A stretch of 64,000 nt of DNA from the sequence record MN850645.1; one strand, given 5' to 3'. Every line of letters starts with the position of its first letter. Position 1 is the first letter of the stretch. Of the stretch, positions 58,658 to 64,000 are shown one piece after another. Position numbers and translations under genes: made by a program. The notes below the pieces were generated by a model. It was not told where the DNA came from. It saw nothing but the letters and a program-made list of their open reading frames with translations, and made no database searches. This DNA comes from Escherichia phage outra.

Positions 58658-59048
58658 CATAAATATCCTCCCAAATCCAATAATCATCTGTGTAAGTAGG
58701 ATGCCTTTTATCCCACTCTGCTCTAGCCCAAGCAACCGCTGCTACCAACACATCACCATGACAAGGTTGAGGTGCGCAGAAGCAAACTAAGTCTTTCCCT
58801 TCTAATTCTAACAAATCCTCAAGAGTGATTTTACCACAACGAATTTGTTCCCACAACCACTCTTTATATCTTTGTATAGTTGACCCTCGTGGTTCATCAT
58901 CCTTTAACTTAAAAGGATTTGCAAACTTTGAGGCTTTTAACCCCATATGAGGCATAGCTCTGCCAATGTAAACTGCACCTTCAGGTATTACTTTACCTAA
59001 GTGGTAAAAATTTAATACTTTCATATTAACCCAAACACATCTGTGCAA
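58638..59048 (-). CDS. DUF4326-like protein
   Basis: Conserved block GKDLVCFCAPQPCHGDVL; the track start is a TTG at 59048, and an ATG at 59024 directly after the upstream stop is an alternative. Confidence 0.45.
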   Translation of the reverse strand: MHRCVWVNMKVLNFYHLGKVIPEGAVYIGRAMPHMGLKASKFANPFKLKDDEPRGSTIQRYKEWLWEQIRCGKITLEDLLELEGKDLVCFCAPQPCHGDVLVAAVAWARAEWDKRHPTYTDDYWIWEDIYEDYTRN

Positions 59049-59376
59049 TCAAGCCCTGTATAAATTTATTAGCTTCTTTACTGTCGTAGTCAGTCTCTTC
59101 TGGATATCCATCTTCATCGTACACAACTGTACCTTCAATATACCCTGCCTCAATTAAGGCGCGGATCATATCAAATTGCCAGCATGAGTTACCAAATGGA
59201 CGTTTACCATTAAAACACTCTTCTTCTCTCCATAACGTAGAGAGTAGTTGTCGGAAATATTCCCGTACAGTGACAGTACCAAGATCTGAATCCTCAAACA
59301 TAACATCCAGGGCATCAGGATTGCTTTTCTCTACGTAAGGAATATATTTAACACCATTAATAGTTACATCAAGCAT
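59026..59376 (-). CDS. hypothetical protein
   Basis: 116 aa ORF, start adjacent to the upstream stop. Confidence 0.4.
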   Translation of the reverse strand: MLDVTINGVKYIPYVEKSNPDALDVMFEDSDLGTVTVREYFRQLLSTLWREEECFNGKRPFGNSCWQFDMIRALIEAGYIEGTVVYDEDGYPEETDYDSKEANKFIQGLIAQMCLG

Positions 59377-59739
59377 TTATTTCTCCTTATCATCATATTC
59401 TAGGAACATATCTGCACGATATGCTTTACGCTCTTCAAACTTAGCAGGATCTACAACAATAAGCAATACAAGGTTAACATCTAAATACTTTTTAACAAAT
59501 AGAAATAAATCTTTTCCACAGTTAAAACCTACACCAGTATAGGCATCCCCATATTGATCTACTGATTTAATCTTCTTACTAACCGTACATTCTATGCTAT
59601 TCTTTTCTTCTTGGTATAAGGCTTTCCCACCCCAATATGTAAAGAATTTAGTACCGTCAGCACCAAGTTTAAAACCTTCTGTTGCATGTCCAGCAAATGA
59701 AAGTAAACATAACCAAGTAATCATCAGGTACTTTAGCAT
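59377..59739 (-). CDS. secreted protein with signal peptide (start revised)
   Basis: The ATG at 59739 lies 1 nt after the upstream stop; N-terminus MLKYLMITWLCLLSFAGHA looks like a cleavable signal peptide. Confidence 0.4.
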   Translation of the reverse strand: MLKYLMITWLCLLSFAGHATEGFKLGADGTKFFTYWGGKALYQEEKNSIECTVSKKIKSVDQYGDAYTGVGFNCGKDLFLFVKKYLDVNLVLLIVVDPAKFEERKAYRADMFLEYDDKEK

Positions 59740-59740
59740 T

Positions 59741-60223
59741 TTAACCACCCAATTGCAAATGTTTAGAAAGAACAATATCCCACTGATCACCACAACCATT
59801 ATCTATGCGGAACATAATGTACGTATCATCTTCTTCTACGACATATAATACCTCATAGGAATTACAACAGCCTTCCCAATTTTTAACAGCCTCTGGTGTA
59901 TGATGTGTAAGGATTTCATTACCATCATATGACCAAAACAAAGGGGTAAGGTTTTCGAAGGTCAGTGAAGTAGGGTTTACTTCATCTTTAACTGCTTCCT
60001 CATATTCTTTATGCGTTTGTACTGCTTTAGTTAGTGTACTCATGTCTATCTCCTTTTCTCCTTCTTGACTATGGAGGATAGCGAACTCTCTAAACTCCAC
60101 CTCACGCCATGTTTTCAGGTAGTGCTTTATAATTTGATCAACATCTACCTGTTCAACGTTACTTTTCAAGCAATAGTAGTCATGGTCTTCACCCATTCTA
60201 CCCCATATGCTATACATTGTCAT
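59741..60223 (-). CDS. hypothetical protein
   Basis: 160 aa; GAAGGA 8 nt upstream. Confidence 0.4.
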   Translation of the reverse strand: MTMYSIWGRMGEDHDYYCLKSNVEQVDVDQIIKHYLKTWREVEFREFAILHSQEGEKEIDMSTLTKAVQTHKEYEEAVKDEVNPTSLTFENLTPLFWSYDGNEILTHHTPEAVKNWEGCCNSYEVLYVVEEDDTYIMFRIDNGCGDQWDIVLSKHLQLGG

Positions 60224-60491
60224 CTGATTGATCCTTCACATTGTTCTTGGCATACACAGGAATAACATCATGGTGATCTTTATTACTTTCGTCTGTTAAA
60301 GCCCAAAACAACTTACCTGCCGGATGTTTAAAGATGTAAGCAATAGGTTCCTCTTCCTGTGCTTCTTTGCTACGGATGCCATCCCGCCAGGCAAGCCAAG
60401 TGTAGATCATCATCTCTTGACGTTCTTCTTCATTAGGCCACAGATGGGGTAGAAAGTTTTTATCAAACCATTGCTTAAACTCTTCAGTCAT
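60210..60491 (-). CDS. hypothetical protein
   Basis: 93 aa; AAGGAG 7 nt upstream. Confidence 0.4.
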   Translation of the reverse strand: MTEEFKQWFDKNFLPHLWPNEEERQEMMIYTWLAWRDGIRSKEAQEEEPIAYIFKHPAGKLFWALTDESNKDHHDVIPVYAKNNVKDQSDDNV

Positions 60492-60501
60492 AATCTACTC
60501 C

Positions 60502-60666
60502 TTAGCGTACAAAGTTAACTTCTGCTTCTTTCAGCTTTGACACTTCTACATAACCACCATGATCATCTTTAATCCATTCTTTTCCTTTTCGGATGATAAC
60601 AGGGTAGGTAGAGTGAGTAAGTTTAGGTACAGATCTTTTTGTTTTAGTGATAGAAATGTTTTGCAT
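60502..60666 (-). CDS. small basic protein (54 aa), not in the ORF track
   Basis: ATG at 60666 with AAGGAGA 6 nt upstream; TAA at 60504-60502; Lys-rich; fills an otherwise 235 nt gap. Confidence 0.35.
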   Translation of the reverse strand: MQNISITKTKRSVPKLTHSTYPVIIRKGKEWIKDDHGGYVEVSKLKEAEVNFVR

Positions 60667-60694
60667 AGTAGTCTCCTTAGTAAATTTTACATAG

Positions 60695-60723
60695 AATCTA
60701 GATTATTTAGTAGGTAGAGTCAA
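60695..60723 (-). promoter_or_regulatory. candidate sigma70-like promoter (TTGACT-17 nt-TAGATT)
   Basis: -35 at 60723-60718 and -10 at 60700-60695 on the minus strand, upstream of the small ORF at 60502-60666. Confidence 0.35.
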
Positions 60724-60726
60724 TAA

Positions 60727-60993
60727 CTAATTACTGTTAGATCTGTACTCTGTCTTCCATTCACAATGGTAAACTTCAACAGGTTCTAACTTCCAGTGTT
60801 CAGGAACTAGTTCAGGACAATATCTACAAAAGAGAAATAGATAGATAACTAAGACAGGTATTAAATAGTAAAATGGTATACGATCATAACCATACTTACG
60901 AGATAACATGTAGACATATAGATAGGGTATAACAATTAATCCTATAACTATAAGTAAGAAGAGAAGTATAAACCTTAGTGTAGTAACATCCAT
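60727..60993 (-). CDS. small membrane protein (two TM helices)
   Basis: 88 aa; AGGAGA 5 nt upstream; hydrophobic LRFILLFLLIVIGLIVIPYLYVYM and LIPVLVIYLFLF. Confidence 0.45.
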   Translation of the reverse strand: MDVTTLRFILLFLLIVIGLIVIPYLYVYMLSRKYGYDRIPFYYLIPVLVIYLFLFCRYCPELVPEHWKLEPVEVYHCEWKTEYRSNSN

Positions 60994-61070
60994 AGTATTC
61001 TCCTATACAGTAATATACTCTGTTCCTGCCCCTCCATGAGTGACAGGAACAATATCTATAGAGAATACTA
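60994..61070 (-). promoter_or_regulatory. nested RNA secondary structure enclosing the RBS of the downstream membrane-protein gene
   Basis: 9 nt inverted repeat AGTATTCTC (60994-61002) / GAGAATACT (61062-61070) enclosing a 7 bp hairpin GTTCCTG...CAGGAAC (61011-61039); on the mRNA the 3' arm contains the Shine-Dalgarno region. Confidence 0.35.
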
Positions 61071-61157
61071 ACTCGCTTCGCTCGTCACCTTTCAGGTTTA
61101 GGGTAGCATGTTTTTCTGAAAAAGTCAATACTCTCCACAAAACTTTACAAAATACTT

Positions 61158-61430
61158 TTACATAGGTACAACAGAGTCTGTTTTGAAGTCGTACATATGA
61201 TTTACACCTGTGATTTTTGACATAGAGATTGCACGTTTAGCACCTGCAATTACCTGGTCTGTCTTCTTAATCTCTTCACGGAACTTACGTACAGTTAAAG
61301 AGAAGAAACGATGATCCATCCATTGACGATTCACACGATCACGCTTGAAGTGACGGAAATCTTCAATCTGCTTATTGCGCAATCGGCGCAGTACATGCAA
61401 TAGTTGATAGTAAGGGTGTTTATTTTTCAT
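61158..61430 (-). CDS. hypothetical basic protein (possible nucleic-acid binding)
   Basis: 90 aa, Arg/Lys-rich; GGAGAA 6 nt upstream. Confidence 0.4.
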   Translation of the reverse strand: MKNKHPYYQLLHVLRRLRNKQIEDFRHFKRDRVNRQWMDHRFFSLTVRKFREEIKKTDQVIAGAKRAISMSKITGVNHMYDFKTDSVVPM

Positions 61431-61433
61431 AAA

Positions 61434-61862
61434 TTATTCTCCAAATCGAAAATCGTCAATATCATCAAACCATACACAATGGCGAGTCCTTTCTTTTTCT
61501 GTTGCAGACATTGTTTCAACAGCTTTAGGACTAAGCACAACAGGAGTGTAACGAATAGGTCGTTCATAATAGTAGCCATACTTTTCTGTATTAGCTGCCT
61601 CAAAGACTTTACGGCGTTCTTCAAGATCTTCTATGGTGAATCCTACCATATAGCCATCATATTTGCTACCCCATCCTTCCTCGCTTTCAACAATCGGGAT
61701 ATAAAAGCCGTTACGCGTCCCTAACGCTGGTTTTTCTTGAGCCTGAAGGCAAGCCTCCCATCCTGCTTTAAAGACGTTATAGAGCGATTTACGCACGTTA
61801 TGAGTGCCGCTTTCGCTTGCTGGATAGAGTTCATTAAATTTATCTTGGATTTGTTGTGTCAT
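61434..61862 (-). CDS. hypothetical protein
   Basis: 142 aa; AAGGGG 6 nt upstream; start overlaps the stop of the upstream small ORF (ATGA). Confidence 0.4.
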   Translation of the reverse strand: MTQQIQDKFNELYPASESGTHNVRKSLYNVFKAGWEACLQAQEKPALGTRNGFYIPIVESEEGWGSKYDGYMVGFTIEDLEERRKVFEAANTEKYGYYYERPIRYTPVVLSPKAVETMSATEKERTRHCVWFDDIDDFRFGE

Positions 61863-62005
61863 ACTCGCCCCTTAGTGATTATTTGACCAGCTAAACAAAT
61901 AGCTTGTAGTACAATAAAGAAGTAGCCTAATTTTACACTACCCAATACCCAGAATGCAATGTTTGCAAACAAACAAAAAGCAATATTAAGTCTAAAGAAT
62001 AACAT
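61859..62005 (-). CDS. small hydrophobic membrane protein (48 aa), not in the ORF track
   Basis: ATG at 62005 after AAGGGG and right after the upstream stop; translation MLFFRLNIAFCLFANIAFWVLGSVKLGYFFIVLQAICLAGQIITKGRV; its stop overlaps the next ATG (ATGA). Confidence 0.45.
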   Translation of the reverse strand: MLFFRLNIAFCLFANIAFWVLGSVKLGYFFIVLQAICLAGQIITKGRV

Positions 62006-62206
62006 TTAATCCCCTTCATATTTAGGTAAAGGCATATATGCCACAATAGGAGGGTAATCAAAGTGAAAATGATGGTTCACCACAATAATCTTACCAGACA
62101 TACTTTTATGCACTTCACAATACCCTTTTTCACCATCTTCCATTACCACCACATACTCACCTAGTGGGATATCGTATGGATCTTCTACTTTTACCCATTC
62201 TGTCAT
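62006..62206 (-). CDS. hypothetical small protein
   Basis: 66 aa; 4 nt overlap (ATGA) with the upstream gene. Confidence 0.4.
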   Translation of the reverse strand: MTEWVKVEDPYDIPLGEYVVVMEDGEKGYCEVHKSMSGKIIVVNHHFHFDYPPIVAYMPLPKYEGD

Positions 62207-62472
62207 TTTGGAAATACCTCTTGTCCATCTTCATGCATTTGTAGTAAAGTTTCACAGATTTCATACACATCTTGGTATGTTACAACTGAGAGATCAGATT
62301 CTTGATCTTCGACAAGCATAGCACAAAGAGCTTTAATGTCAATACCTTTACAATGTTCCGTAGCTACACGGTACATTTCACCATCCTCCCAAACAATTGG
62401 TTGCGGGAGCAAAACATCTGTACCATCTTCACAAGTTACAATGTAGTCTGCAATATTATCACGAATTTTCAT
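62203..62472 (-). CDS. hypothetical small acidic protein
   Basis: 89 aa; 4 nt overlaps with both neighbours. Confidence 0.4.
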   Translation of the reverse strand: MKIRDNIADYIVTCEDGTDVLLPQPIVWEDGEMYRVATEHCKGIDIKALCAMLVEDQESDLSVVTYQDVYEICETLLQMHEDGQEVFPK

Positions 62473-62726
62473 TGTACTACCCCCTTAAATCCAGATGTAC
62501 TGCCAGTTTTAACTTTTGCTTTAAGAGGTTCCAACTCTACCATAGGTGTTGCTACTTGTATAGGATTTTCCTCAACCTCATAAATATAATATTCATAATA
62601 AGCATACTTACCAATAGAGTGCAGATACTTAATTGCATGTTCAGGTGAATCTGCTTCAACATACCCCAAATCTTTTGTAGTGCGGCCTTCACAGTCGCCT
62701 TCTGTAGTTACGTGATAAAGTGTCAT
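62469..62726 (-). CDS. hypothetical small protein
   Basis: 85 aa; 4 nt overlaps with both neighbours. Confidence 0.4.
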   Translation of the reverse strand: MTLYHVTTEGDCEGRTTKDLGYVEADSPEHAIKYLHSIGKYAYYEYYIYEVEENPIQVATPMVELEPLKAKVKTGSTSGFKGVVQ

Positions 62727-63046
62727 AAAACCTCCTTCTTGTTGGCTGCTTCAATCATAGCGTTAAGAGTCTCCATACCACTGTCAACTGCTTGAGCAAT
62801 CTCTTGGAACACCGTTTTCTTAAAGATGTATAAAGATCCTGCCTGTAAGCGTTGCACACAGCATAAGATGGTTTGGTGATCCATAACAAAATCACCATAA
62901 GCACAATCAATTTTCCCTGTGATTGGGTTGTCTCGTGAGCGAGGATCGTATTCTAATGTGATATGCGTTACACCAGGTAAAGTAACAAACTGACAACGGA
63001 TATTGACACGTGGTGCAATTGACACGCTAAACAGACTGTTTGACAT
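62723..63046 (-). CDS. hypothetical protein
   Basis: 107 aa; GAGGAGG 5 nt upstream; ATG directly after the stop of the small ORF at 63047-63193. Confidence 0.4.
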   Translation of the reverse strand: MSNSLFSVSIAPRVNIRCQFVTLPGVTHITLEYDPRSRDNPITGKIDCAYGDFVMDHQTILCCVQRLQAGSLYIFKKTVFQEIAQAVDSGMETLNAMIEAANKKEVL

Positions 63047-63193
63047 TTAAACCTCCTCATAGTAAGGTAAAGCCTTGATCAGTTGTTCTGAAGTGCCATT
63101 TTGCACCCACGTAACACCATTGTCAACAGAAACATACCCTTTTTTGTCAATAAATTTACGCAGACAGCCAGTGAACTTATTTTTGTAGATCAT
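63047..63193 (-). CDS. small ORF (48 aa), not in the ORF track
   Basis: ATG at 63193 overlaps the upstream TGA (ATGA); TAA at 63049-63047 abuts the next ATG; AAGGA about 9 nt upstream. Confidence 0.35.
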   Translation of the reverse strand: MIYKNKFTGCLRKFIDKKGYVSVDNGVTWVQNGTSEQLIKALPYYEEV

Positions 63194-63357
63194 TTCTTCT
63201 TTCCTTTTTGATTACACCCCCCATCACTCCCTTGCCAAACTTCCGATCTGAATTCCATCTCAAACCACTCACCACCGCAAAAACGGTTATGTTCAACACG
63301 TCTATCTTCCTTCATTGCTTCTTTAGCTTCGATAGAAGTTAGTTCGATGTTTTGCAT
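63190..63357 (-). CDS. small protein (55 aa); first gene of the leftward small-gene operon
   Basis: The ATG at 63357 has AGGAGA 8 nt upstream and lies just downstream of a TTGACA-type promoter; the 113 aa track ORF to 63531 would run into the divergent + gene. Confidence 0.35.
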   Translation of the reverse strand: MQNIELTSIEAKEAMKEDRRVEHNRFCGGEWFEMEFRSEVWQGSDGGCNQKGKKK

Positions 63358-63388
63358 TTGTTTTTCTCCTTTCATTTGGTATGCGCTA

Positions 63389-63416
63389 ATCTTAACAAAA
63401 TAAAAATGTATGTCAA
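63389..63416 (-). promoter_or_regulatory. sigma70-like promoter for the leftward operon (TTGACA-16 nt-TAAGAT)
   Basis: Perfect -35 TTGACA (63416-63411) and -10 TAAGAT (63394-63389) on the minus strand, about 30 nt upstream of the ATG at 63357. Confidence 0.5.
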
Positions 63417-63475
63417 TACTTGATTTGAAATTAGTTTCTGGTACTCTGTGGGTATCGTAACAAAAGAGGTTAGAT

Positions 63476-63766
63476 ATGAACATCACACTAGCAACTAAGA
63501 ATATTACAGAAACTTTTGATGGTTTTGGCATTATTATTGCTGTTCATGGGCATAACGAAAAATGGTTAGCCTCTTTTGAAGAGGACAAAGAACGCAATGT
63601 ACGTTTGAATGCACCAATCAAAGTTTTACACCAGGTAGGTGAGAATAAGAAACAATGGAGATCATACAAAGAGTGGAACATTACGAACGAGTTAATACAC
63701 AAACTTGACAAAGTGATAAACATGTTCGACAATGCACCAAGCAGTGCAAAACGTGTTTTACTATAA
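63476..63766 (+). CDS. hypothetical protein (first rightward gene after the divergent region)
   Basis: 96 aa; AAAGAGG 7 nt upstream of the ATG. Confidence 0.45.
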   Translation: MNITLATKNITETFDGFGIIIAVHGHNEKWLASFEEDKERNVRLNAPIKVLHQVGENKKQWRSYKEWNITNELIHKLDKVINMFDNAPSSAKRVLL

Positions 63767-63777
63767 AGGAGAGTGAT

Positions 63778-64000
63778 ATGAAAATTGTACACGATGAAAT
63801 TCAATTTGAAGAGAGTGATCTTCTTGATCTGGATGTGACACTAAGTAAACTGATCTACAACGCACTTTCTGCATATCGTGCAAAAGTGATAGCCACAAAC
63901 AATGTTAAAATTCCTAGCGGGTTACTTCGTCGGATGTACCCACACGCTAAAGGTGACTATCTACCTTATATGGAAGAACGAGCAGCAGAACACTGGTTAG
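63778..64000 (+). CDS. hypothetical protein, 5' partial (runs off the window end)
   Basis: ATG at 63778 preceded by AAGGAGAG; the frame is open to the end of the window. Confidence 0.4.
   Translation, partial: MKIVHDEIQFEESDLLDLDVTLSKLIYNALSAYRAKVIATNNVKIPSGLLRRMYPHAKGDYLPYMEERAAEHWL

Follow-up and report, generated by a model that had tools for sequence, protein, structure and literature searches.

What do the very small genes packed into positions 63357 to 61158 of the DNA of Escherichia phage outra represent, and what could their products do? We addressed this question in a stretch of 64,000 nucleotides (nt) from sequence record MN850645.1, the whole of which is referred to here as the window. 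An earlier sequence-only reading had seen in this locus a leftward operon of small open reading frames (ORFs), some of them missing from an ORF list, whose products might take over the host. The window belongs to the genome of a phi92-like coliphage (Justusliebigvirus, Stephanstirmvirinae), and our results indicate that the locus is very likely the promoter-proximal end of a leftward early transcription unit comprising nine packed small genes.

The putative promoter and the gene chain

Nine minus-strand genes, here named g1 to g9, follow one another from 63357 to 61158 with almost no non-coding DNA between them: g1 (63357-63190, 55 amino acids (aa)), g2 (63193-63047, 48 aa), g3 (63046-62723, 107 aa), g4 (62726-62469, 85 aa), g5 (62472-62203, 89 aa), g6 (62206-62006, 66 aa), g7 (62005-61859, 48 aa), g8 (61862-61434, 142 aa) and g9 (61430-61158, 90 aa), the last of the chain. 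Five of the eight junctions are ATGA overlaps, two are abutting TAA|ATG sequences and one, from g8 to g9, is a gap of 3 nt. A Shine-Dalgarno (SD)-like motif precedes each of the nine starts, and a scan of 59000-64000 found no terminator-like site. A coupled operon is marked by genes on one strand whose stop and start codons overlap or abut, by SD motifs within the upstream gene and by the lack of an internal terminator; all of these features are found here, and the junction geometry would allow translational coupling. The sequence-only reading had counted seven to eight short ORFs joined by ATGA or TAATG overlaps. The packed chain and the ATGA overlaps are real, but g9 was overlooked 3 nt past g8, and the supposed TAATG is TAAATG, an adjacency rather than an overlap.

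Upstream of g1, a putative sigma-70-type extended -10 promoter lies on the minus strand at 63389-63416 (TTGACA, a 16-nt spacer and tgTAAGAT; 10 of 12 matches). It combines the -35 hexamer TTGACA, a spacer within 16-18 nt, TG at -15/-14 and a TATAAT-like -10 hexamer with conservation of the hexamers. When this site is aligned with two genomes of Phapecoctavirus and that of phi92, the sequence tgTTAAGAT and the -35 box, including the flank upstream of the box, are seen to be retained, whereas the spacer varies; conserved hexamers around a changing spacer are the footprint expected of a working promoter. The promoter lies in a divergent intergenic region of 118 bp (63358-63475, assigned to neither strand) that separates g1 on the minus strand from a DUF7325 gene (63476-63766) on the plus strand. 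Bidirectional sigma-70 promoters have been reported at a comparable divergence point in rV5 relatives, and the rV5 genome paper predicted consensus-like sigma-70 promoters, many of them with an extended -10 (PMC3606486). The TTGACA-type promoter that the sequence-only reading had placed at the head of a packed leftward operon agrees with the sequence, the junctions and the conservation of the hexamers across genera.

Downstream of the chain, the same strand continues with genes for a UvrD-type helicase, NrdD, a primase-helicase and a family A DNA polymerase, which are typical early or middle functions. Because the same strand runs on into these replication genes, g1 to g9 form the head of the genome's leftward arm of replication and early functions. 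We propose that host RNA polymerase with sigma-70 would most likely start at 63416-63389 soon after DNA entry and would probably produce one polycistronic mRNA through all nine genes, from 63357 to 61158. Ribosomes could then re-initiate from gene to gene, since the genes overlap or abut at seven of their eight junctions. The products would be small, dispensable, non-structural accessory proteins acting in the first minutes of infection.

Several points weigh against this proposal. Across the scan, which covers an AT-rich region, promoter-like matches numbered 12 against 17.6 expected from shuffled sequences; since the scan is not enriched over shuffles, a single promoter hit on its own is weak evidence. 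Two more sigma-70-like minus-strand matches of 10 of 12 fall within genes, one at 63126-63098 inside g2 (TTGACA-17-CAAAAT) and one at 62342-62315 inside g5 (TTGACA-16-tgTATGCT). They could be internal promoters or chance matches, and internal transcript starts are therefore possible. The window as a whole contains 19 copies of the motif TATTGACW, where 8.9 would be expected. The coding evidence for g7 draws on only 11 substitutions, and the codon usage of this gene is marginal. The literature searched yielded no transcript or protein data for this phage group, so that the early timing, the single mRNA and the coupling are all inferred, and our searches assigned no function to any of the nine products.

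Genes and a gene remnant in the chain

The two 48-aa ORFs singled out by the sequence-only reading for their proper ribosome-binding sites and coupling geometry, g2 and g7, do possess SD motifs and close junctions, and both are conserved. A lack of conserved reading frames in related phages had been named as grounds for abandoning that reading; the frames of both genes proved to be conserved. As for their being missing from the ORF list, they do lie below its size cut-off, but such small genes are annotated as coding sequences (CDSs) in ESCO8 and phi92 and belong to PHROG families or Pfam DUF families.

The small soluble protein g2 is the homologue of phi92 gp213 and belongs to phrog_2381 (E 1.8e-11). 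Searches with tblastn recovered it in full length from 224 phage records at a coverage of at least 94% and identities from 100% down to about 51%. These records span Justusliebigvirus, Phapecoctavirus, Mydovirus and other Vequintavirinae as well as the 350-kb Asteriusvirus jumbo phages, and the homologues are annotated as CDSs of about 47-50 aa within similar strings of small genes. Compared with Phapecoctavirus, the synonymous sites of g2 are half saturated while the protein remains 94% identical, giving a ratio of non-synonymous to synonymous change (pN/pS) of 0.07-0.13; with distant homologues the ratio is about 0.3 (overall range 0.07-0.33), and 21 residues are invariant. When 120 spurious ORFs, off-frame and 40-70 codons long, served as a benchmark, only one was as gene-like in codon usage as g2. 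By these comparisons g2 is clearly a genuine gene, and its breadth together with its strong constraint would make it the best candidate in the chain for a conserved interaction with a host component. The N-terminal 46 residues encoded by a further minus-strand gene, 59741-60223 (a homologue of phi92 gp205), also match phrog_2381 (E 3.8e-17). The two genes were considered as paralogues, an idea set aside when neither BLASTP nor hhalign, the latter with shallow profiles, found a direct relationship.

The first gene of the chain has a different history. Only residues 1-36 of g1 match phrog_22208 and phrog_3474, families with profiles of 64 and 147 positions, and the Phapecoctavirus gene at the same position encodes 144-147 aa. 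Compared with the 144-aa gene of Phapecoctavirus, g1 lacks 15 codons through an in-frame deletion and about 270 nt (about 90 codons) of the 3' part. Its N-terminal 35 codons are conserved (pN/pS 0.2-0.45) and a strong SD (AAAGGAG) is kept. In phi92 and PaulScherrer, gp217 (183 aa), encoded on the other strand, combines a g1-like N-module with a C-module of 112 residues; in the window and in Phapecoctavirus, the N-module and C-module are separate genes on opposite strands. From these alignments we read g1 as what is left, after decay, of the N-terminal part of a larger gene, with a frame-variable tail. The remnant may survive because it carries the promoter-proximal translation start.

The variability of the tail arises in two homopolymer tracts at the 3' end of g1 (63190-63230). 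Across 12 nearly identical genomes the G-run varies from G4 to G7 and the A-run from A4 to A6, which puts the tail in all three frames. In ESCO8, g1 encodes 48 aa and stops 18 nt upstream of g2; in the window, which has one G fewer in the G-run than ESCO8, and in three other genomes, it encodes 55 aa and reaches g2 through an ATGA overlap; in five of the 12 it encodes 59 aa and overlaps g2 by 17 nt; and in EmilieFrey and ZYD the two genes are fused in frame into one product of 104 aa. The ATGA coupling of g1 to g2 proposed by the sequence-only reading is thus not conserved. These four outcomes would be what one expects if the G and A runs were a slippage-prone switch toggling g2 between separate, coupled and fused expression. 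We consider such a switch highly improbable, since homopolymer length is the commonest sequencing or assembly error, neutral decay of a remnant would yield an equal pattern, and g2 keeps its SD and start codon unchanged in all 12 genomes, so that it does not need g1. The variation could reflect genuine slippage, the neutral decay of g1 or errors in the sequencing of homopolymers; either all three frames of g1 are tolerated or some of them are sequencing errors. The tracts are a warning for both annotation and sequencing, and g1 should be treated as a remnant.

The hydrophobic 48-aa protein g7 is the homologue of phi92 gp211 and matches phrog_27111, a family of unknown function, over positions 1-48 of 48 (E 1.1e-35). 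Its grand average of hydropathy is 1.45, and hydropathy analysis predicts two hydrophobic segments, spanning approximately residues 3-22 and 26-43, with S-V-K between them and a basic tail after them. These segments are compatible with a two-pass membrane hairpin, and the protein most likely resides in the inner membrane, in line with the sequence-only reading, which had described a hydrophobic and possibly membrane-located product at 61859-62005. A PDB sequence search with g7 found no match. T4 Imm and holin-like peptides are likewise small phage membrane proteins. They resemble g7 in small size and in having two hydrophobic segments flanked by basic residues; the likeness is an analogy, as no sequence relationship of g7 to an annotated family was found.

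The status of g7 bears on a broader alternative, namely that some of these small ORFs are not functional genes; g1 would then be a remnant pseudogene, and g7 an ORF that occurs by chance in a spacer. For g1, the partial family matches, the lost codons and the three-frame tail speak for this view, and the conserved N-terminal codons and retained SD speak against it. For g7, the codon-usage score of 0.03 lies below 98.6% of true-gene chunks and is matched by 5% of spurious ORFs, and the family is confined to one genus: all 55 full-length records are Justusliebigvirus, at an identity of at least 91.7%. On the other side, none of these records contains a gap, stop or frameshift, and g7 fits exactly between g6 and g8 (TAA|ATG and ATGA) with an SD of its own. 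Among 16 sequences, six of the 11 variable positions are synonymous and five non-synonymous (R5K, A9T, I16V, L26S and I31T), whereas 22% synonymous is expected; this bias (P=0.017) is the best among the three sense frames. Moreover, low codon-usage scores are expected for very hydrophobic proteins, and a neighbouring 88-aa membrane protein, an undisputed gene, scores even lower than g7. We therefore regard it as rather unlikely that such ORFs are functionless, and g7 is probably a genuine gene.

The remaining genes and their mosaic setting

The third gene, g3, belongs to Pfam family DUF7247 (PF23905; E 5e-47, 159.3 bits against a gathering cut-off of 27), its residues 4-105 aligning to profile positions 2-103 of 106. 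The family was found in 493 phage records, covering Stephanstirmvirinae and many Tevenvirinae. In the Tevenvirinae loci examined, the gene always lies in the gene 32-frd interval and adjoins frd.1 where that gene is annotated; T4 itself seemingly lacks it, its annotation leaving 72 nt between frd.1 and frd. Word-indexed homologue searches returned three clusters each for g3 and g8, and a profile built with T-even homologues was needed to recover the relatives of g3, 73 in number and all carrying PF23905. C18 and Q19 of g3 are invariant in alignments of 7 and of 40 sequences, and R17 in that of 7. An AlphaFold2 model from the 40-sequence alignment (predicted local distance difference test score (pLDDT) 90.4; predicted template modelling score 0.82) shows two short helices and four antiparallel strands along with a long helix at the C terminus. 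Fold searches with this model, the only usable one obtained, found no informative neighbour, the only significant BFVD matches being DUF7247 proteins, one of which bears a podovirus-style name (vB_EcoP_WFI101126), and a literature search on DUF7247 returned nothing specific.

The next three genes, g4 to g6, encode small acidic proteins. The hypothetical protein g4 matches phrog_12401 and was recovered from 96 phage records, most of them from Phapecoctavirus (73-83% identity), with a pN/pS of about 0.2. Its PDB matches to AI-designed TIM barrels were rejected, since no stretch passes on its own. With an isoelectric point (pI) of 4.1, g5 is very acidic, and its 21 records comprise 14 of Justusliebigvirus, six of Klebsiella phages (41-46% identity) and Citrobacter phage Tr1 (29%). 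The homologue of phi92 gp212, g6 (phrog_7252), is also found in rV5-like phages and occurs in 269 records. The homologue of phi92 gp210, g8 (phrog_25627), represents a rare family, with 15 HMMER matches among 1.84 billion representatives; two large matches (4413 aa and 797 aa) were judged spurious, being repeat proteins (cadherin/NHL and ACBP repeats). Of the changes seen in g8, 17 are synonymous and 11 non-synonymous (P<0.001); a single-sequence AlphaFold model of the protein was unusable (pLDDT 41.9). Finally, g9 is the basic homologue (pI 10.6) of phi92 gp209 (phrog_14778), occurs in 135 records and has 16 synonymous against 5 non-synonymous changes. Eight of the nine proteins match PHROG families, every one of unknown function, g5 being the sole protein with no match.

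These genes are not new to public annotation. All nine are hypothetical-protein CDSs in Escherichia phage vB_EcoM_ESCO8 (ESCO8_00172 to ESCO8_00180), the genome to which the 3-kb region around the chain is 99.9% identical. Apart from g1, the genes have identical coordinates in the two. The same region matches dozens of other Justusliebigvirus genomes at 96-99% identity over part of its length only. The phi92 annotation lists gp213, gp212, gp211, gp210 and gp209, the homologues of g2, g6, g7, g8 and g9, with ribosome-binding sites, and EmilieFrey, PATM, muut, PaulScherrer and others annotate these small genes too. Dozens to hundreds of phage genomes already have these genes annotated, and the feature is ordinary for a large lytic coliphage. 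An IMG/VR search added only two related contigs. Some records labelled as Campylobacter, Acinetobacter (ABPW7), Pseudomonas (PsgM04F) and Serratia phages are 86-99% identical to these coliphages here, and ZYD, a Justusliebigvirus-like genome, is filed under Vequintavirus; the host and taxon labels of these public records look unreliable.

The composition of the chain differs among relatives. At the DNA level, g1 to g4 match Phapecoctavirus at about 88%, and g6 to g9 form a phi92-type block. Most Justusliebigviruses have the order g1-g2-g6-g7-g8-g9, into which g3-g4-g5 are inserted in ESCO8 and the window; EmilieFrey, KMB37 and W22 have g4-g5 without g3, and phi92 has none of g3 to g5 and an inverted promoter segment. 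The promoter-bearing segment also has the opposite orientation, as in phi92, in muut, which carries an extra 332-aa gene, and in PaulScherrer. Judged by these gene orders, the block is a recombination mosaic within a "hyperplastic", accessory and recombination-prone early region. The inverted segment, on the 63358-64000 side, holds the divergent promoters together with the DUF7325 gene and a gp214-like gene. No convincing and no long inverted repeats were found at the inversion breakpoints.

Just past g9, a structured non-coding spacer (61003-61157, minus strand) marks the 3' boundary of the chain. Its predicted fold has an energy of -51.2 kcal/mol (z = -4.1). It contains a conserved element consisting of a promoter-like sequence, TTGACT-N14-TGC-TACCCT, at 61128-61100, a short hairpin and the conserved sequence ACGAGCGA(A/TA)GCGAGT. 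The hairpin differs in sequence among copies and retains its dyad symmetry. About 65 nt of the element are about 90% identical across genera, whereas the flanking g9 protein is only 40% identical. There is one copy in the 64-kb window and there are two in Phapecoctavirus genomes; the second copy of Schickermooser lies antisense into a gene for a 69-aa hydrophobic protein, and some records annotate a CDS of 41-45 aa over the element. An Rfam search found no match for the element, and Rfam together with a tRNA scan gave nothing relevant.

Possible functions and known systems

The sequence-only reading held that such promoter-proximal small proteins typically serve host takeover or anti-defence. 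This expectation found no support in PADLOC, NCBIfam, PDB sequences or the fold searches with g3. PADLOC returned no family at E values up to 1 for the nine proteins, NCBIfam gave nothing relevant, and PDB sequence searches with g2 to g9 produced no credible match. No similarity to known anti-defence families (Ocr/ArdA mimics, anti-CRISPRs and Tad/Gad/Had-type proteins) emerged from PDB, PHROG or the g3 model, with no dedicated collection searched. A search of the literature for functional studies of phi92-like or phAPEC8-like early genes found nothing specific.

Nevertheless, an effector role, with g7 as a membrane effector (in superinfection exclusion or membrane perturbation, for example), has several features of the locus on its side: the promoter-proximal position, the variable mosaic gene content among close relatives, which is typical of accessory and counter-defence loci, the small size and strong acidity of g5, the two hydrophobic segments of g7 and the occurrence of the g3 family in T-even phages as well, within the gene 32-frd interval, which is non-essential. 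Against it stand the lack of any annotated PHROG function and of any PADLOC, NCBIfam or solved-structure sequence match. In addition, phi92-like BASEL phages are reported to be "exceptionally susceptible" to restriction-modification systems (PMC8594841). Two of them, EmilieFrey and PaulScherrer, carry g2 and g4 to g9, and this sensitivity of the carriers therefore argues against an effective anti-restriction factor among these genes. On balance, we think it unlikely that the promoter-proximal proteins are host-takeover or anti-defence effectors. We are equally doubtful that at least one conserved small protein is a previously unrecognised host-takeover or counter-defence factor, for which g2, g5 and g7 would be the best candidates; if it were true, the mosaic turnover of the block would reflect an arms race.

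That the genes are real matters little in itself, as they are already annotated as hypothetical and no mechanism is indicated. The practical value of this analysis is a short, ordered candidate list for functional screens in a phage group used in therapy, whose members have a very broad host range and yet are reported to be poorly protected against restriction. The candidates are g2 for the breadth of its conservation, g3 for its confident structural model and g7 as a candidate membrane peptide.

The early unit proposed here can be compared with two known systems. It shares with rV5 the sigma-70 and extended -10 promoters and a bidirectional region that parts divergent units of small genes (PMC3606486), and g6 homologues occur in rV5-like phages, although the gene content of the units differs and the rV5 promoters are likewise predicted only. 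In T4-type phages, hyperplastic early regions, of which the gene 32-frd interval is one, likewise consist of small, non-essential, overlapping non-structural genes with host-type promoters and mosaic presence or absence. T4 additionally carries early promoter/stem-loop ("PeSL") cassettes in many repeated copies; the promoter-hairpin element past g9 is single in the window and present twice in Phapecoctavirus. The window phage belongs to a different lineage from the T4-type phages, the Stephanstirmvirinae, but the two kinds of region literally have one gene family in common: DUF7247, represented by g3 here and by its relatives in the T-even gene 32-frd interval.

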